Assembly (NCBI GenBank): GCA_964640635.1
Contig: CAZXFD010000002.1
Coordinates: 179,115 to 243,114 of the forward strand
Length of the DNA: 64,000 nt
Direction: 5' to 3'
Source: an uncultured Gammaproteobacteria bacterium
GTDB taxonomy: Bacteria; Patescibacteriota; Patescibacteriia; UBA1558; S5-K13
Below the pieces are notes generated by a model. It did no database searches, had not been told where the DNA came from, and saw only the letters and a list, made by a program, of their open reading frames with translations. Within the stretch, counting starts at the first letter, position 1; each line of letters starts with the position of its first letter. The position numbers and the translations under genes were made by a program. This document shows positions 9,889-57,830 of the stretch, one piece after another.

Positions 9889-10422
9889 ATGCCTAAAATA
9901 ATCTACTCTAAAAGACGAACTCTATGCCTTGAAATAGGAAAAAACGCGGAACTTATCATAAGGGCGCCAAAGCGATTACCAGAGTCCCAAATTTACAAAT
10001 TTATTCAGAAAAAAAGTGCTTGGATAAAATCTCGCCAAGAAAAAAAATTGGCCGACATTTCAAAAGTCCAAGAACTCGCCTCTAAAATAGACATCAAAAT
10101 ATCAAAATCAGATGCTTACAATATTATCTCTCAAAGAACTAAGGAATTATCTTCTACTTATAACTTTATCTATAATACAATCAAAATAAATAATGCGCGA
10201 ACAAGATGGGGATCTTGTAGTGCAAAAAATAATATTAACTTTACAAAAAAAATTGCAATACTTCCCGAATCAGTTATGAATTATATTATTGTTCACGAAT
10301 TATCTCATACAATAGAAAAAAATCATTCTCGCAAATTTTGGACTCTTGTCCGAAATATACTACCAAATTATAAACAACAACAAAAATGGCTCAAAGAAAA
10401 TGGACATATACTAGAATTATAA
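9889..10422 (+). CDS. DUF45/YgjP-like (WLM/SprT-type) metal-dependent hydrolase
   Basis: HELSHTIEKNHSRKFW (HExxH...H) near the C-terminus, about 178 aa. The true start is probably ATG 9889 (MPKIIYSKRRT...); the upstream extension of the ORF-track call overlaps repeat A and a GC hairpin. Confidence 0.6.
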   Translation: MPKIIYSKRRTLCLEIGKNAELIIRAPKRLPESQIYKFIQKKSAWIKSRQEKKLADISKVQELASKIDIKISKSDAYNIISQRTKELSSTYNFIYNTIKINNARTRWGSCSAKNNINFTKKIAILPESVMNYIIVHELSHTIEKNHSRKFWTLVRNILPNYKQQQKWLKENGHILEL

Positions 10423-11162
10423 TATTTTCTATTTTAACTTTGTTAATTTGTAATCAAATTACAAAAGCAGGAAGCACTAGCACAATAAGCATCGATGAAA
10501 CAATTCTTGATTCAGACAATGACGGACTTAGTGATTTCAAAGAAAAAAATATTTATTTTACAGATCCAAACAATTCTGATTCAGATGGAGATGGCTATAA
10601 AGATGGTGAAGAAATAAAATATAACTATTCTCCCAGAGACAATAAAAGAAAACTAATCTCCACAGACTCAGACCAAGATGGTCTAATGGATCTCTGGGAA
10701 ATAAATCTTGGAACTAATTTAATAAATCCTGACTCTGATGGCGATGGTTATAAAGATGGTGAAGAAATAATAGGTGGATATGATCCACTATCAAATAACA
10801 ACGAAAAACAAGAAAAGTTAATTAAAATTAATCTAAAAAATCAAGAACTAAGTTATTATCTAGGACCCAAAAAAATAACAAGCTTCAAAATATCAAGTGG
10901 CATAAAAAGCCTTGCGACTCCTCGTGGTACTTACAAAATATTAAACAAAATACCGGTTAAGCTATATAAAGGCATAGGATACAATTATCCAAACACAAAA
11001 TGGAATCTTCGTTTTTCTACCAGTGGATTATATATTCACGGGGCATACTGGCACAACAAATTTGGAACCCCAATGAGTCATGGATGTATTAATGTATCAT
11101 ATGAAAATATGGAATCACTCTACAATATGGCTTTAACTGGGGATAAAATAATCGTTGAATAA
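10386..11162 (+). CDS. L,D-transpeptidase (YkuD domain) with two N-terminal thrombospondin type-3-like Ca-binding repeats
   Basis: The C-terminal region (ATPRGTYKIL...LYIHGAYWHNKFGTPMSHGCINVS) carries the catalytic His/Cys of L,D-transpeptidases. Two D-x-D-x-DG-L-x-D...SDSDGDGYKDGEE repeats and an N-terminal signal/TM are present. Confidence 0.7.
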   Translation: MAQRKWTYTRIIIFSILTLLICNQITKAGSTSTISIDETILDSDNDGLSDFKEKNIYFTDPNNSDSDGDGYKDGEEIKYNYSPRDNKRKLISTDSDQDGLMDLWEINLGTNLINPDSDGDGYKDGEEIIGGYDPLSNNNEKQEKLIKINLKNQELSYYLGPKKITSFKISSGIKSLATPRGTYKILNKIPVKLYKGIGYNYPNTKWNLRFSTSGLYIHGAYWHNKFGTPMSHGCINVSYENMESLYNMALTGDKIIVE

Positions 11163-14033: not shown

Positions 14034-15626
14034 TTAAAAAACTTTTGTGATTATTTTTTTTATTAAATCTATTCCTATCATTTGTTTTGATGGCTTTATG
14101 TTCAAAAGTCCCAGCACGGTAGGAGCGATATCAGACAAAACTCCATTTATATCTTTTTGACAAAAATCTTCGTTTGAAATTTCTTTTGTTTTGTTTTTGA
14201 ATTTATCACTAACGATAACGCATGGAACTGGATATGAACTATGTTCTTTATCTATTTCTCCTGTTTTTAGATTTACCACTTCTTCTGCATTTCCATGGTC
14301 TGCTGTCAAAATAACTGTACCATTTTTCTTCAAGAAAGCTGGGATAATTTCTGATAAATTTTTATCGAGCGCCTCTATCGCCTTTATAGATGCATCAAGA
14401 TTTCCAGTGTGCCCTACCATATCAGCATTTGCAAAATTCACCACATAAAAGTTAAACTTATCTTGGTTCACCTTTTCTATAAGTACATTTTTAATTAATT
14501 CTGCAGACATTTCTGGGAGTAAATCATATGTTTCAACATCAGGAGATGGAATAAGAATTCTTTCTTCATTTTGATATTTTTCTTCTTTAAGTCCATTAAA
14601 GAAAAATGTAACGTGTGCATACTTTTCTGTTTCTGCTATATGAAGCTGAGACAAACCAGCGTTGTCTATAAGTTCAGACAAAGTTCCATTTATATCTGGC
14701 CTTCTAAAAGCTACCTCAACCGGTAAACCTTTTTGATATTCTGTAAAAGTTACCACTGACAAATTTTTTAGCTTCTCTCCCCTGTCAAACTCTTTGAAAT
14801 CTTCTTGAGTAAAAGCATTTAGTATTTGTCTTGCTCTATCTGCTCTAAAATTAAAAAATATTACTGAATCACCATCGCAAACTTTAGCTATAGGTTCACC
14901 GTCTTTGATGATAACAAGTGGATGAAATTCTTCATCAAAAATATTTTTTGCATAAGATGCTTGAATAGCTAGTGCAGGGTCTTCATCTTTGTCTTTTGCA
15001 ATACCATGAACAATTGCATCATAGCTAAGCTTAATTCTATCCCAATTATTATTTCTATCCATGCCATAAAATCTACCCGAGATAGTTGCTATTTTTCCAC
15101 ACCCATAAATTTCTATAGTCCTAAGTAGATTCTTTGTAAAAACAACCCCTTTATCTTTGGCAGTGTCACGACCATCTAAAAAAAGATGGATAAAAACTTT
15201 TTCTAATTTATTCTCACATGCCAGTTTCAAAAGAGATTCAAGATGTGCTTGATGAGAATGGACTCCTCCAGTTCCAAGAAGTCCAATAAGATGAAGTGCG
15301 CTATTATTGTTTTTTGCATTTTCTATAACTTTCAAAAGAACTTCATTCTTGAAAAAATTACCATTTAGTATTTCTTTATTTATTCTATTTAAACTCTGTG
15401 GAACTATTTGACCAGATCCAAGCGTAAGATGCCCTACTTCTGAATTTCCAACCTCACCATAGGGAAGTCCACTTGCCTCTCCCGATGCCTGCAACAAAAA
15501 AGATGGATAATTTTTTAACAAAAAATCCCAATATTTTGGCTTTGCAAGAGTTATTGCATTACCAATAGATGGCTCAGATACTCCCCAGCCATCTAAAATT
15601 ATAAGTGCAACTGGATTAGTAGTCAT
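14034..15626 (-). CDS. gpmI: 2,3-bisphosphoglycerate-independent phosphoglycerate mutase
   Basis: ILDGWGVSE, SEVGHLTLGSGQIV and ADHGNAEE motifs; 530 aa. Confidence 0.9.
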   Translation of the reverse strand: MTTNPVALIILDGWGVSEPSIGNAITLAKPKYWDFLLKNYPSFLLQASGEASGLPYGEVGNSEVGHLTLGSGQIVPQSLNRINKEILNGNFFKNEVLLKVIENAKNNNSALHLIGLLGTGGVHSHQAHLESLLKLACENKLEKVFIHLFLDGRDTAKDKGVVFTKNLLRTIEIYGCGKIATISGRFYGMDRNNNWDRIKLSYDAIVHGIAKDKDEDPALAIQASYAKNIFDEEFHPLVIIKDGEPIAKVCDGDSVIFFNFRADRARQILNAFTQEDFKEFDRGEKLKNLSVVTFTEYQKGLPVEVAFRRPDINGTLSELIDNAGLSQLHIAETEKYAHVTFFFNGLKEEKYQNEERILIPSPDVETYDLLPEMSAELIKNVLIEKVNQDKFNFYVVNFANADMVGHTGNLDASIKAIEALDKNLSEIIPAFLKKNGTVILTADHGNAEEVVNLKTGEIDKEHSSYPVPCVIVSDKFKNKTKEISNEDFCQKDINGVLSDIAPTVLGLLNIKPSKQMIGIDLIKKIITKVF

Positions 15627-15891
15627 AATTTATTGTTTCTATTTTTCCCTCAAGAGCTTCTCTAATCTTATTTTTTATAAGAGAATCATTTTCTTCTATT
15701 ATTTTCACGAGTTCTATTTTCTTGCTTTCATCTTGCTCTTTTTCAAGTTTGATGATCTTCTGATTCATTTTATAAACCAGATTCGTAATAATAGTAAGTG
15801 TTTTCTCTTTTTTATCTTCTGGAACGTTAAATTCCAAAAAATAGCTTTCTACTGATTTTTGCTTAATTTCTTCCATATTTTTGTTTATCAC
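15616..15891 (-). CDS. Small charged coiled-coil protein (91 aa), hypothetical
   Basis: ORF overlapping the gpmI start by 11 nt (translational coupling plausible). No family recognised. Confidence 0.3.
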   Translation of the reverse strand: MINKNMEEIKQKSVESYFLEFNVPEDKKEKTLTIITNLVYKMNQKIIKLEKEQDESKKIELVKIIEENDSLIKNKIREALEGKIETINYDY

Positions 15892-15964
15892 CCATATGAT
15901 GAAATAAATTTCTTACCTTTATTATAGCATTAATTTTAGGAGATTAGGAGGATTAGCCTGCCTG

Positions 15965-16020
15965 CTCATTCGAGTCTGGGCTTGAGAGCTCAGCTCTCAG
16001 AGTCGAAGACCGGTAGGCAG
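15965..16020 (-). repeat. 56-bp structured repeat, copy B (inverted relative to copy A)
   Basis: ctcattcgagtctgggcttgagagctcagctctcagagtcgaagaccggtaggcag is the reverse complement of 9781..9836 with 3 mismatches. It is nested in a larger inverted repeat ttaggagattagg (15938) / cctaatctcctaa (16079). Confidence 0.8.
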
Positions 16021-16194
16021 GGGAATTAGGTTAAATATAATCATTATTAGCATTAATACACTAATCTCACTAATCATCCTAATCTCCTAATCTAATCTTG
16101 ACTACTAGCCAATATTATGATAACTTCTATATAGACACTCGACGATTAAGCTTTCGGTGGCTTAAGACTACTAATATAATTAAATCAGAATAAA

Positions 16195-16809
16195 ATGACA
16201 AAAAACTTTCATTATGAATTGGGTTTTTTAATAGATGCAAACATTCCTGAAAATGAACATCCTAAAACAATCCAAACAGTTAAAGAGCTCCTCCTAGAAA
16301 AAGGTGCAAATATTATTTCCGAAATAGACTTTGGAAGAAAGAAATTGAATTATCCTATCAAAAAGTCTTTAAAAGCAAGCTTTTTTGTATTTGAATTTAC
16401 AATAGAAGCAAAGGAAATAAAATCAATAGAACAAACCCTAAAGCTCGAAAAAGCAATTTTGAGATTTTTAACAACAAAAAAACCTCATAATATTATCAAT
16501 CAAAAACCTACTGAAGTAGAGCCACAGAGAAACAACAACGATAGGAATGACAGAAACGACAATAAAAGAGAAAGGCCTTCTTTTGACAGAAAACCTGCGG
16601 AAACCAAAAAACCTGAGGTTATTGTAGAAAAAGAAGATGTAAAAGAAGATGTAAAAATCGAAGAACCTCAAGAACCTAAAGAAGAGATAGTAGAAGAAGT
16701 AGTAAAAACTGATGATATTAAACAGGCTGAAGTTGTTCAAAAAGAGCCTGTAGCTCAAAACGATTTAGACAAAAAATTAGATGAAATTTTAAATGAAAAC
16801 AAGTTTTAA
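16195..16809 (+). CDS. rpsF: 30S ribosomal protein S6 with a long acidic/Lys-rich C-terminal extension
   Basis: N-terminal about 95 aa (YELGFLIDANIP...KKLNYPIKK...FFVFEF) is S6-like. Conserved rpsF-ssb-rpsR gene order. Confidence 0.8.
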   Translation: MTKNFHYELGFLIDANIPENEHPKTIQTVKELLLEKGANIISEIDFGRKKLNYPIKKSLKASFFVFEFTIEAKEIKSIEQTLKLEKAILRFLTTKKPHNIINQKPTEVEPQRNNNDRNDRNDNKRERPSFDRKPAETKKPEVIVEKEDVKEDVKIEEPQEPKEEIVEEVVKTDDIKQAEVVQKEPVAQNDLDKKLDEILNENKF

Positions 16810-16839
16810 AAACATCAATTAACTAACTACATAAATCAT

Positions 16840-18115: not shown

Positions 18116-18135
18116 TTTTCACATCTTATAATAAT

Positions 18136-18167
18136 AAAAACATGGAATTAAAAAACCATGTTTTTTT
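18136..18167. terminator. Hairpin terminator between efp and the convergent transposase-like gene
   Basis: Stem aaaaacatgg/ccatgttttt with an 11-nt loop, flanked by an A-run and a T7 run. Confidence 0.6.
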
Positions 18168-18645
18168 GATCTAAAAATGTATATTTATATTCCTCTGGAG
18201 TATTTGATAGTTTATGTTTCACACAATTAAAATAAACATAATTAGTAATCACTCCTAATTGTTTTTCTATATTAATTTCTCTTGATTTATAGATATACTC
18301 AAACAATCTTCCCGATCTTTTATACTTATCATTAAAATATCTTGTATACGAATGGGCTAATAAACCTATGAATTTTGATATAACTGAGCCACGATATTGA
18401 TTAACTCCAACCCGGGGTTGACCATTCGGCAACCCCGGGTTGGGTTCCTGCAAAACAAAATGATAATGATTTGGTAATAAACAATATGCAATTATATTTA
18501 TACCAGTTTTATAGCTATAAAACCTTAACTTATCCAAAAAATACTCAAAATCTATATCCGAAGCAAAAATCACTTTTTTATCTATGCCTCTATTGTAAAT
18601 ATGATATAGCCCACCACAATATATGTTTCTTTGATTTTTATGCAT
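18148..18645 (-). CDS. IS200/IS605-family Y1 HUH transposase homologue (TnpA/RAYT-like), single ORF
   Basis: YHIYNRG..., HUH motif LPNHYHFVL, and C-terminal NYVYFNCVKHKL (catalytic Tyr region); 165 aa. It contains an in-frame GC-rich perfect inverted repeat at 18408..18443. Confidence 0.7.
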   Translation of the reverse strand: MHKNQRNIYCGGLYHIYNRGIDKKVIFASDIDFEYFLDKLRFYSYKTGINIIAYCLLPNHYHFVLQEPNPGLPNGQPRVGVNQYRGSVISKFIGLLAHSYTRYFNDKYKRSGRLFEYIYKSREINIEKQLGVITNYVYFNCVKHKLSNTPEEYKYTFLDQKNMVF

Positions 18646-18718
18646 AAAAAAAGACCATTAATAAAAATTATTACGGCCATATTTAGATATTAAAATAATA
18701 TAAAAACAAAGTCAATGC

Positions 18719-42181: not shown

Positions 42182-42288
42182 ATAAAACACGAATCTCAAG
42201 AATAAAAAAATCCAGAATTAGTTCTGGATTTTTTTATTTAACTTCTAATTTCTAGTTTTTTATATCTTTGTTGTTAAAGTTTGACGAG

Positions 42289-42365
42289 TGGTGCACTCGG
42301 CAGGACTCAAACCTGCAACCCCTTGTTCCGAAGACAAGTGCTCTATTCAATTAAGCTACGAGTGC
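42289..42365 (-). tRNA. tRNA-Arg (anticodon UCG)
   Basis: Reverse complement GCACTCGTAGCTTAATTGAATAGAGCACTTGTCTTCGGAACAAGGGGTTGCAGGTTTGAGTCCTGCCGAGTGCACCA. Anticodon stem CTTGT/ACAAG, loop CT-TCG-GA, acceptor GCACTCG/CGAGTGC, encoded CCA. Confidence 0.8.
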
Positions 42366-52684: not shown

Positions 52685-53092
52685 ATGCTAAAAAACTTAA
52701 AAATATTTATATTAACGCTCTTGCTATCTTTCTGTTTTTACAACGGTACTTTCGCGGTAACTAATATAAACTCCGAAGAAAGAACTGATGCTTTTGCCGG
52801 ACAAGCCGGCTTACTTGCTCCATCTCACACTACTATTATTGAAAATATTGTAAAAGTATCGCTAAGTTTACTTGCCGTCGTATTTCTTATATTAATAATT
52901 TACTCCGGTTTTGAATGGATGACTGCGGGAGGAAGTGAAGAAAAGGTTAAAAAAGCAAAGGGAAGAATAAAAAATGCTACAATTGGAGTCATAATAGTAT
53001 TATTCTCATACATAATAACGAGTTTTATATTCAGCACCATTGAGTGTAGCACCACGGGTTGTAATGAGGGGGTTTGGAACTTTAATTTCTAA
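52685..53092 (+). CDS. TrbC/VirB2-like pilin family protein, paralogue 7 (C-terminal CSTTGC tail)
   Basis: Signal peptide (…GTFAV), core SGFEWMTAGGSEEKVKKAKGRIKNAT; 135 aa. Confidence 0.55.
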   Translation: MLKNLKIFILTLLLSFCFYNGTFAVTNINSEERTDAFAGQAGLLAPSHTTIIENIVKVSLSLLAVVFLILIIYSGFEWMTAGGSEEKVKKAKGRIKNATIGVIIVLFSYIITSFIFSTIECSTTGCNEGVWNFNF

Positions 53093-53117
53093 ACATACAA
53101 ATTAAATTTATAACAAA

Positions 53118-53145
53118 AATCGGATCATAGATCCGATTTTTGTTA
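53118..53145. terminator. Bidirectional hairpin terminator between the pilin array and the convergent isomerase gene
   Basis: aaaaatcggatcatagatccgattttt: stem atcggatc/gatccgat flanked by an A-run and a T-run. Confidence 0.6.
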
Positions 53146-53163
53146 TAAACAATGTTATACTAA

Positions 53164-54174
53164 TTATTCCTTCATTCTTATTTTCAAATAATCCACATAA
53201 GGATTTGGCTGGGGATCAATATTATTAAAATATGCTAAGTAAAATGATGCATATGAAGAAGCTCCCATTATATACATTGCCTCCTCGCATATATTTTTAC
53301 CCATTGGCTTTATTTCAATAAATTTAATTTTCTTTTTATTTAGAATTTCTTTCATTATTTCATATCGTTTTTGATTTCTTTTGTAATAACTATTTGAGCT
53401 TATTAAAACATATATAATTTGCTTGTTTAGCTCTACTGGATTGTTAAGTCCCTCAAATTGATGATGACAAATTTCAGGAATAGAAAAATATGCTGACATA
53501 TTCTTGCCAGTTTCATTGATTTGATTTTGAAAAATATGAGCATTGGCAATAAGATGCTCCGATGCAATAATAATAGGCATTTTACCGCTTATATTTTTTG
53601 CAATTTTCTCTGCAACTGCCTTTCCCTTAATAAAGATTTTTACTTCTTTTTCAAGTTTTGAAATACTATACTTCAAAAACCCTAATTTATTTAGCAAACA
53701 AATAAAAACCGCTATAGAATAACCCGCTGCAAATCTAGGATTTTTTGCATAATTATAAATAGGATCATAAACAAATTTAGTGGAGTCTGCTTTTGAAAGT
53801 TCGCCACCAGTACAAATTACAAAAGTTTTAAGTCTCTTTTTCTTAGCACTTTTAAAACAACTAATAGACTCCTCCGTTGTGCCAGAAAAACTTGATATCA
53901 CAACAAGTGTTTGCTTATCAATCCATGCTGGTAAATCATATTCATTTGAAATAATGAGTGGAACATTAATATATTTTGAAAAAACACTTCTTACAAAATG
54001 TGGCCCCAAAGCTGATCCACCCATTCCACAAACAATAATTTTATCAACCCCCTTAATTTTGCTTAAATCAACATTTTTAAACTCCTTAAAAATTTGCTCG
54101 AACTGTTTGTGAGAATTTTCATAAGTTTTAAAAACAAATCCCTTATCAAAGTCTTTTATCTTTTTTTGGTCCAT
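53164..54174 (-). CDS. SIS-domain bifunctional phosphoglucose/phosphomannose isomerase-type protein
   Basis: IIVCGMGGSALGPHFVRS SIS motif; 336 aa, the length typical of PGI/PMI-family proteins. Confidence 0.5.
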   Translation of the reverse strand: MDQKKIKDFDKGFVFKTYENSHKQFEQIFKEFKNVDLSKIKGVDKIIVCGMGGSALGPHFVRSVFSKYINVPLIISNEYDLPAWIDKQTLVVISSFSGTTEESISCFKSAKKKRLKTFVICTGGELSKADSTKFVYDPIYNYAKNPRFAAGYSIAVFICLLNKLGFLKYSISKLEKEVKIFIKGKAVAEKIAKNISGKMPIIIASEHLIANAHIFQNQINETGKNMSAYFSIPEICHHQFEGLNNPVELNKQIIYVLISSNSYYKRNQKRYEIMKEILNKKKIKFIEIKPMGKNICEEAMYIMGASSYASFYLAYFNNIDPQPNPYVDYLKIRMKE

Positions 54175-57278: not shown

Positions 57279-57830
57279 TTATTTTCTATAATTCCTATCA
57301 TTTTCCCAGTTACTGGGATTATTTTGTATATATTTTCTACATTTCCATAAATCAAGGTCTGTACGCATTATGCGATCATAAAATCCTTGTTGCCAACGGA
57401 AACTATAATGTTTAAATTGTATATTTATTATTTTTTTACAGATTGATTTGTAAGATCTAATTATCGATGATAATGACCCTGATTTTGGAGAAATGTTAGA
57501 CATTTGCGCATTTCCGTAGAGACGTAGCATTGCTACGTCTCTACGTTGTTTAAATCTAATAGACATTATCAAATGTACGTGATTTGGCATTATAATAAAC
57601 GAATCTATTTTAATAAAACGGAAATGCGCATCTATTTGTTTTAAATACTGTTTTACAATATACCCCAACTCATTTAATATCATCTTTTCCTCTTTAATTT
57701 CACCGAACATATTTACCCTATCCTTTGTACAGATTGTGACAAAATAAAAACCGGGATTAGAATAATCCCAGCACTCTAGCCTTGTCGATTTAACCCTATA
57801 TTTATTTTTAAATAAGGCCTTATTTTTCAT
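57279..57830 (-). CDS. IS200/IS605-family Y1 HUH transposase homologue (RAYT-like), second and distinct paralogue
   Basis: FYFVTICT, HUH motif MPNHVHLIM, C-terminal SFRWQQGFYDRIMR...YIQNNP. It contains an in-frame 31-nt perfect palindrome at 57514..57544. Confidence 0.7.
   Translation of the reverse strand: MKNKALFKNKYRVKSTRLECWDYSNPGFYFVTICTKDRVNMFGEIKEEKMILNELGYIVKQYLKQIDAHFRFIKIDSFIIMPNHVHLIMSIRFKQRRDVAMLRLYGNAQMSNISPKSGSLSSIIRSYKSICKKIINIQFKHYSFRWQQGFYDRIMRTDLDLWKCRKYIQNNPSNWENDRNYRK

Follow-up and report, generated by a model that had tools for sequence, protein, structure and literature searches.

REP-type hairpins probably copied in frame into the genes of their own RAYT-like enzymes in a Patescibacteria-type genome

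RAYTs (REP-associated tyrosine transposases) and the REPs (repetitive extragenic palindromic sequences) that go with them offer a well-known case of co-evolution between a domesticated transposase and its non-autonomous repeats. In the REPtron of E. coli, reportedly described by Nunvar in 2010 and by Messing in 2012 (the latter with PDB 4ER8), the enzyme TnpAREP (RayT/YafM) is flanked by REPs or BIMEs (bacterial interspersed mosaic elements), and a larger unit, the REPIN (two inverted REPs with a short spacer), is said to have been recognized by Bertels and Rainey in 2011 as being mobilised by RAYTs. The RAYT groups for which REPINs are described are 2 and 3; group 1 is not among them. Palindromic elements of Rickettsia, which Ogata reportedly described in 2000, lie in frame in protein genes. 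Here we analyze two perfect, GC-rich hairpins that lie inside two RAYT-like genes, gene 1 and gene 2, of a 64,000-nt stretch of contig CAZXFD010000002.1 (assembly GCA_964640635.1), hereafter called the window. We consider it likely that both are REP-type hairpins that were copied in frame into the enzyme's own gene, at a solvent-exposed loop that joins the HUH beta-strand to helix alphaC.

The nearest published case is that of Quentin, Siguier, Chandler and Fichant (2018, BMC Genomics 19:475, PMC6006769), who described subclass 2.4 (group 4 of Bertels) with the motifs NH[IFV]H, WQ and YIxNNP. The REPs of this subclass have a double foot, 5' GT[AG]G and 3' C[TC]AC, and internal REPs are termed a "unique feature of subclass 2.4" (section 13, Table 1), the variable region lying at the protein periphery in a structural model. 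In the same survey, subclass 2.1 (group 1) has the motifs NH[YF]H, FQ (or W[EQ]) and Y[IV]HLNP and a C-terminal extension with a conserved serine motif; no REP-like sequences were reported for it, and the paper makes no mention of Patescibacteria or candidate phyla. In the literature that we searched, neither RAYTs of Patescibacteria nor REPs for subclass 2.1 were found described. REPs inside genes have been documented by Di Nocera (2013, PMC3733652), and E. coli TnpAREP is described as cleaving and recombining REP/BIME DNA in vitro (Ton-Hoang 2012, PMC3333891).

Both genes of the window are intact open reading frames (ORFs) on the minus strand, and ORF and translation checks placed both hairpins in frame (Table 1). 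In gene 1, two 14-nt arms, CCAACCCGGGGTTG at 18407-18420 and CAACCCCGGGTTGG at 18430-18443, are 100% complementary across a 9-nt loop, and in gene 2 two 15-nt arms (57515-57529 and 57531-57545) are 100% complementary with 1 nt between them. Their total lengths of 37 and 31 nt are in the size range of short (20-40 bp) GC-rich REP palindromes, and their GC contents are 68% and 52% in a window with 31%. The arms of the gene 1-type hairpin are each a quasi-palindrome (X-n-X'), which makes the element a doublet of self-complementary units, whereas the gene 2 palindrome is a double-foot REP, GTAGAGAC...GTCTCTAC, with the feet GTAG at 57516-57519 and CTAC at 57541-57544. DNA folding gave -21.3 kcal/mol (z -7.2) for the gene 1 hairpin and -16.1 kcal/mol (z -6.9 to -8.7) for that of gene 2; the predicted RNA hairpins have -34.6 and -24.7 kcal/mol (z about -6 to -7), and the z-scores of both hairpins range overall from -5.9 to -8.7. 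When the window was simulated 100 times with a first-order Markov model, perfect inverted repeats with arms of at least 13 nt numbered 0.05 per simulated window on average, and none had a GC content of at least 50%.

Neither palindrome has a second copy in the 64-kb window: that of gene 1 was searched with 2-3 mismatches allowed and also as single GC-rich units, of which the window contains just the two of the doublet, and that of gene 2 with up to 3 mismatches, so that gene 2 has no flanking REPs there. No other GC-rich hairpin with arms of at least 8 nt was found in the window beyond these two sites. A scan of the whole window against Rfam at the gathering threshold detected three tRNAs only, and neither hairpin matches a family.

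A profile-profile alignment of the two protein families (probability 95%) lines up the HUH motifs, the inserts and the Tyr motifs, which shows that both hairpins occupy the homologous loop between the HUH motif and the next helix. In the AlphaFold model of gene 1 (mean predicted local distance difference test score, 89.5), residues 67-87 form the sole internal low-confidence segment, with the HUH strand (60-66) before it and a helix (88-108) after it; the loop that hosts the hairpin is thus predicted to be peripheral. The top Foldseek match of this model is 4er8_A (E 1.7e-7, template modelling score 0.67), and a sequence search of the PDB with either family profile also gave 4er8, E. coli TnpAREP with a REP hairpin, as its single match. 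The first-pass annotation, made from the letters alone, had placed perfect GC-rich repeats in frame in a homologous variable loop past the HUH motif of two HUH (IS200/RAYT-like) transposase genes, and this placement holds; both genes encode HUH Y1 enzymes of the RAYT/TnpAREP kind. Its sites are real, with the corrections that the arms of gene 1 have 14 nt, not 13, and that the gene 2 repeat lies one base higher than it was given.

The HUH motif and the catalytic-position Tyr are intact in both proteins. In the gene 1 family, H60 is invariant and H62 nearly so (at least 90%) in alignment A2, and Y136 and N140 are invariant in alignments A2 and A4. Gene 2 has NHVH at residues 83-86, W146-Q147 and Y167-I-Q-N-N-P172, and N83, H84, H86, Y167, I168 and N171 are invariant in alignment A1 of its family. 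Both proteins pass Pfam PF01797 (Y1_Tnp; gene 1 with 25.5 bits, cut-off 23) and stay under the equivalog cut-off of 80 bits of NF047646, the NCBIfam model that they match best (REP_Tyr_transpos; 49.3 and 55.6 bits for genes 1 and 2), indicating that they are relatives of the E. coli-type model rather than equivalogs. They share the HUH Y1 fold and the logic of hairpin recognition with the TnpA of IS200/IS605, which has subterminal hairpins, but they lack the class 1 motifs DH[VI]H and Y[IV]ENQ (here NH.H and Y...N), and there are no identical multi-copy insertions. We rejected an IS200-type insertion sequence as the identity of either gene, given the absence of the class 1 motifs, the low response to NF033573 (IS200/IS605 TnpA; no match for gene 1, 21.2 bits for gene 2, far under the cut-off of 55), the single copy in the window and the synteny of gene 1.

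Judged by motifs alone, the signature of subclass 2.1 fits gene 1 best. At the W position gene 1 has FE and its clade relatives have FQ; at the Y motif it has YVYFNC, with Cys for the Pro of the class 2 signature Y---NP (which gene 2 carries as YIQNNP), whereas the rest of the clade has Y[IV]NLNP and the consensus of the wider family is YIHxNPVxHGL. The window protein (165 aa) and its close relative P0122 (173 aa) stop soon after the Y motif, whereas C-terminal W.Y[ST]S... extensions are present in the wider family and in those clade relatives that have 201-213 aa. P0122, from a Patescibacteria metagenome-assembled genome, is 51% identical to gene 1. Both genes converge on efp, with rpsR next to it; at the P0122 locus ssb and rpsF come after. 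Shared synteny at 51% identity suggests that gene 1 was inherited vertically as a single-copy gene and is no hopping insertion sequence. Where gene 1 ends, an AT-rich imperfect hairpin, AAAAACATGG...CCATGTTTTT (18121-18180), covers both its stop codon and the gap to efp and is likely to be a bidirectional terminator of this convergent pair.

Gene 1 belongs to a small, Patescibacteria-like clade of subclass 2.1-type RAYTs. A first homologue search with gene 1 as the query returned one insert-bearing relative only, and the insert-bearing clade surfaced once P0122 served as the query (P0241-P0248 and P0261; further off, P0355, P0359 and P0374). A perfect stem of 13-19 bp was present in 12 of the 13 clade members with recovered DNA, and the thirteenth (L174) has a single unit in its place. 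The stem starts 30-45 nt past the first base of the PNH codons, and the sequence of the hairpin differs in every member. None of the 13 hairpins has a GT[AG]G head. To assess covariation, seven clade sequences were aligned without gaps and compared with 500 shuffles and with slid registers. Pairing was found in 96.6% of the cells, with compensatory double changes in 8 of the 17 pairs; no shuffle was as good (0/500), and the slid registers paired at 33-52%. A fold as two tandem short hairpins is also backed by covariation. However, the covarying central nucleotides of the two units pair in the long form only, which favors one long hairpin, the two forms not being fully separable. The peptides coded by the stems are unrelated (PTLRVGDPEGR, PNPGLPNGQPRVG, STNQRPTFLTSDVG), and a segment 3' of the hairpin, YKxNVNxF, is conserved.

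Outside this clade the insert was mostly absent. A metagenome scan with an alignment of P0121 and P0122 as the query yielded 80 loci, with no close orthologue of gene 1 among them (identity at most 40%). The distance from PNH to YFN was 31-33 residues in all but two of them, and no GC-rich hairpin comparable to that of gene 1 was detected, three loci having a stem of 8-9 bp. These loci served as an outgroup without the insert and for the analysis of flanking hairpins. The insert was likewise absent in about three quarters of 109 representative proteins of the gene 1 family. A peptide-level screen for palindrome compatibility in 150 representatives, which served as a lead only, was suggestive for P0374, P0359 and P0432, and in P0374 and P0359 the internal hairpin was then confirmed in the DNA.

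Leaving aside the window and L081, the efp-linked orthologue of gene 1, every clade locus (11 of 11) has the locus-specific unit of its internal hairpin beside the gene as well. It was seen on both sides in seven loci and on one side in four, and for three of these four the sequence on the missing side is shorter than 140 nt. Upstream, the copies finish 24-95 nt ahead of the annotated ATG, mostly directly 5' of a TTGACA box, and they often form a doublet with a spacer of ~24 nt, which is REPIN-like, or a compact doublet like that inside the gene; the downstream copies lie directly past the stop codon. In L163, two dispersed copies were found in 20 kb besides. For the window gene and L081, no flanking or other copy was detected in 64 kb and 20 kb, respectively, and the internal palindrome is perfect in both. 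Among more distant 2.1-like loci without an internal insert, 7 of 41 have cognate GC-rich hairpins on both flanks, and in five of these seven (L090, L097, L112, L118 and L157) each arm is a quasi-palindrome like that of the window. The flanking copies in the relatives thus identify the hairpin of gene 1 as a REP-type element of its own RAYT lineage.

Several other features were observed around the genes of these relatives. Flanking units lie directly 5' of TTGACA or TTGATA hexamers (L163:9905-9935, L166:1770-1820, L167:40-75 and L171:1110-1160), and downstream units take the same position relative to a hexamer ahead of the next gene (L163:10643-10675, L166:2525-2560 and L173:718-750), as if the REP-like element abutted or carried a -35 box. 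A second hairpin, AGGTCGC...GCGACCT followed by a T run, lies within ~40 nt upstream of the ATG in clade relatives (L166:1840-1880, L167:100-138, L171:1185-1222, L172:40-89 and L174:4930-4976) and abuts the ATG in L166, L167 and L171. In form it resembles a terminator or attenuator of the 5' leader, and the corresponding region of the window (18646-18690) has a weak counterpart only. In L090, four to five copies of ACGTGCCAGGCA...TGCCTGGCACGT are present on each flank of the RAYT gene, and in L074 (9650-9833) three copies of GTAGGGCCATGCCATGGCATGGCCCTAC adjoin it at a spacing of 78 bp; these regular arrays look BIME-like. About 4 kb downstream of the clade RAYT of L163 there is a cassette resembling a diversity-generating retroelement (14434-16796; bAvd and a reverse transcriptase, RVT_1), and a dispersed REP-like unit of this locus lies at 16827, just past the reverse transcriptase gene.

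Gene 2 has hundreds of homologues spread over many phyla, and the loop behind MPNHVHGI is hypervariable in length among them, with the recurring peptides RRDVALQRLY, RDVACNVST, VETLHATSLQ and VEMGLQPIS. For this family we sampled 74 homologous loci, drawn from Bacteroidota, Cyanobacteria, Chloroflexota, Patescibacteria, Gammaproteobacteria and others, together with 1.29 Mb of sequence around them. Half of the loci (37 of 74) have a perfect GC-rich hairpin in the stretch from the HUH motif to WQ, 26 of these 37 showing the double-foot form GT[AG]G...C[TC]AC. The outer GTAG(A/G)G(A/G)C is kept while the inner stem varies by locus. The palindrome is read in phase 0 in 15 cases, in phase 1 in 11 and in phase 2, where a TAG stop would result, in none. 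The two frames turn one palindrome into different peptides, VETLHATSLQ and RDVACNVST, showing, as in the gene 1 clade, that the hairpin is conserved as nucleic acid and not as peptide. Of the remaining GTAG hairpins in the 1.29 Mb, nearly all lie within ~200 bp of the same gene, on its upstream or downstream side, and many match the internal copy exactly or almost exactly. The relatives of both window genes therefore combine the classical REPtron layout with an internal copy.

On its motif signature and REP type, we assign gene 2 to the published subclass 2.4 as a further member; its only peculiarity is that the window contains no flanking copy. The loops of this family also show larger arrangements. 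In a 2.4-type gene of Cyclobacteriaceae (L053:10270-10325), a perfect palindrome of 56 nt with 28-nt arms and a GTAGAGACGCGG core lies in the coding loop, the usual length being 28 nt. Patescibacteria genes of the 2.4 type can have two hairpins per loop (L051:49-261 and 10226-10468, two paralogous genes ~10 kb apart; L065:10193-10486; L067:10217-10453), which shows that the loop tolerates repeated insertion. The N-termini of P0020 and P0016 are REP-encoded peptides (MDLLICRDVALQRLY... and MQRLY...; compare L071:9934-9967); these extensions are the upstream flanking REP in translation, an annotation artefact.

How such a copy could arise and persist may be pictured as follows. By analogy with E. 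coli TnpAREP, the encoded enzyme would recognize, bind and cleave the hairpin as single-stranded DNA, and local, enzyme-mediated copying of a flanking REP may have produced the internal copy. The beta3-alphaC loop would be the sole intragenic site where an insertion survives, with survival limited to stop-free frames, and the copy would persist because the loop tolerates it. The palindrome may be kept perfect by homogenisation with other copies, by hairpin-templated correction or by selection for recognition. Hairpin-templated correction of quasi-palindromes is an established mutational mechanism. Either homogenisation, such correction included, or selection would be needed to keep the pairing perfect.

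Several points weigh against the copying of a REP into the enzyme gene as we propose it. The action of the enzymes on the hairpins is drawn by analogy from E. coli only, and the hairpin of gene 1 is without the GT[AG]G head recognized by the E. coli-type TnpAREP. The activity of the gene 1 protein is uncertain, since NC replaces NP after the catalytic Tyr motif and the C-terminal region of the clade is missing. With no further copy of either hairpin in 64 kb, the repetitive and extragenic property of REPs is not seen in the window, and in the relatives the copies are few and grouped at the RAYT gene. A neutral insert should decay, yet in the window gene 1 and L081 the palindrome is perfect with no flanking copy in the 64 kb and 20 kb covered, which hints at an additional constraint or a correction mechanism. 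The absence of further copies, which the first-pass annotation had named as a sign of chance, holds within the window; it does not imply chance, however, because the comparative evidence is decisive. This evidence also bears on what the first-pass annotation had expected. Internalised recognition hairpins and palindromic mini-elements in the loop, both of which it had put forward, both fit, as the locus-specific hairpin flanks the gene in relatives. That hairpins embedded in the coding sequence are unexpected, as it had stated, does not stand, since they were already published for subclass 2.4 (Quentin et al. 2018, PMC6006769).

A different view of the same element, to which we give perhaps one chance in several, is that in streamlined genomes of the Patescibacteria type the RAYT-embedded REP is the sole survivor and is actively maintained as a cis site, the self-complementary doublets without GTAG forming a new, subclass 2.1-type class of REPs. 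The embedded hairpin might then act as a seed, by which enzyme and hairpin stay in physical linkage. Alternatively, a domesticated HUH nuclease might use it for self-recognition, to sense or regulate its own gene on single-stranded DNA.

It is also possible, though we think it rather unlikely, that the internal hairpin is a selected cis-regulatory element, either an mRNA stem-loop limiting the translation or the mRNA stability of a potentially harmful nuclease or an autoregulatory site at which the enzyme would bind its own gene or transcript. The transposase expression of IS200 is limited by stem-loops, the RNA hairpins predicted here are very stable, the stem position is near-constant in all 13 members of the gene 1 clade, and the pairing is perfect in the window and L081 although no flanking copies were found. 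However, the same element also occurs in non-ORF positions, both ahead of the -35-like box and past the stop codon, and an internal hairpin is missing from most 2.1-like homologues and from about half of those of subclass 2.4; these two observations together disfavor a dedicated regulatory role, and with it the RNA structure controlling translation that the first-pass annotation had listed. In addition, the element is a DNA palindrome, the same on both strands, a property that an mRNA element does not need, and it has no Rfam match.

The inserts could, in a less probable alternative, be neutral scars of unrelated palindromic elements that strike many genes in frame, like those of Rickettsia or intragenic REPs. 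In-frame insertions of this kind in unrelated genes are on record (PMC3733652), and the loop is predicted to be peripheral, but neither element was found in any other gene of the 64-kb window. Over 74 + 13 loci, the hairpin is bound to the RAYT gene and its immediate flanks, and its sequence is locus-specific and common to internal and flanking copies. Still more improbable is a reading in which it is the inserted peptide (a Pro/Gly-rich or RDVA..RLY loop) that counts for the protein, the palindromy being incidental. Peptides of the RRDVALQRLY type recur in many homologues, and YKxNVNxF directly follows the hairpin in the gene 1 clade; the two translation frames among 2.4 homologues, the unrelated stem peptides beside near-complete pairing in the gene 1 clade and the recurrence of the nucleotide units in non-coding flanks all speak against it. 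Finally, chance or a compositional artefact, for which nothing pleads except that the window holds no further copies, is excluded by the simulations and by the recurrence of the feature in dozens of independent assemblies.

Compared with subclass 2.4, gene 2 shares the motifs, the double-foot REP and the phyletic spread (Cyanobacteria, Bacteroidetes and various phyla) and differs in the absence of flanking REPs from the window. Gene 1 has its hairpin in the same loop, but it has a 2.1-type signature, no GTAG foot and a doublet of self-complementary units. With the published subclass 2.1 it disagrees in that cognate units flank the gene in the clade and in some of the distant loci; REPs in 2.1-type loci differ from what was published on the subclass; they do not set the proteins apart from their family. 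With the E. coli REPtron there is a likeness in the single-copy Y1 HUH enzyme and in the cognate GC-rich hairpins that flank the gene in relatives, and E. coli TnpAREP is the best match of both window proteins by sequence and structure. E. coli, however, has hundreds of extragenic REP copies, which are imperfect and bulged, whereas the hairpins described here are perfect, within the ORF and single-copy per 64 kb. Like a REPIN, the gene 1-type element has two inverted units, and the flanking forms of the relatives have a spacer of ~24 nt, but the internal form has a spacer of 1-9 nt, palindromic units and a very low copy number. Intragenic REPs and the Rickettsia elements are similar as short in-frame palindromic inserts at permissive sites that add some 10-30 residues. 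They strike many unrelated genes, whereas here the host is the cognate enzyme and the site is recurrent across the gene family.

Two other perfect palindromes of the window are AT-rich. One, with 20-nt arms (53107-53149), lies between the convergent ORFs 52685..53092 (+) and 53164..54174 (-), and the other, with 17-nt arms (42201-42238), lies ~50 nt from a tRNA gene (42292-42365, -). Both are probable terminators without any relation to the GC-rich hairpins.

Table 1 Features of the two RAYT-like genes of the window and hairpins of the gene 1 clade.
Feature	Position	Strand	Remarks
Gene 1, 165-aa RAYT/TnpAREP-like Y1 HUH protein, subclass 2.1-type signature (NHYH; LFE at W/F position; Y136..N140)	18148..18645	-	
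Gene 1 HUH motif codons H60-Y61-H62	18460..18468	-	Translation check
Gene 1 catalytic-position Tyr136 codon	18238..18240	-	Coordinate check
Promoter-like site TTGACT-17-TAATAT upstream of gene 1	18687..18715	-	Consensus scan only
Gene 1 internal hairpin, 14-bp perfect stem and 9-nt loop	18407..18443		Encodes residues 68-80, PNPGLPNGQPRVG
Gene 1 doublet unit 1, quasi-palindrome CAACCC-G-GGGTTG	18408..18420		
Gene 1 doublet unit 2, CAACCC-C-GGGTTG	18430..18442		Reverse complement of unit 1
Gene 2, 183-aa TnpAREP/RAYT, subclass 2.4 (Bertels group 4) signature NHVH, WQ, YIQNNP	57279..57830	-	
Gene 2 HUH motif codons H84-V85-H86	57573..57581	-	Translation check, alignment A1
Gene 2 catalytic-position Tyr167 codon (YIQNNP)	57330..57332	-	Coordinate check
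Gene 2 internal double-foot REP, C-GTAGAGACGTAGCA-T-TGCTACGTCTCTAC-G	57515..57545		Encodes QRRDVAMLRLYG / RRDVAMLRLY
Clade hairpin, window			CCAACCCGGGGTTG-9-CAACCCCGGGTTGG
Clade hairpin, L081			CCCCACCCAATGGGTGG-4-...
Clade hairpin, L163			ACCGACCCTCAGGGTCG-1-...
Clade hairpin, L168			CCAACGTCCGACGTT-3-...

The case of gene 2 adds one more member to subclass 2.4 and nothing further that is new. That of gene 1 is a known phenomenon in a different RAYT subclass, with a distinct REP architecture, a candidate-phyla host and an internal-only state in the sequence examined. For annotation, "transposase" peptides such as RRDVALQRLY, VETLHATSLQ or PTPGVVDPGGR are translated REPs, and upstream REPs are sometimes read as N-terminal extensions. 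The window gene 1 and L081 are minimal pairs of an enzyme and a single substrate for biochemistry, and these two genomes, in which no extragenic copy was found near the gene, allow a clean natural test between an internal hairpin with a function and one that merely corrects itself. For the family, the gene 1 clade shows that subclass 2.1-type RAYTs, reported as REP-less in 2018, do have cognate hairpins, and that the lodging of a REP copy in the HUH-alphaC loop of the enzyme arose in a second lineage.

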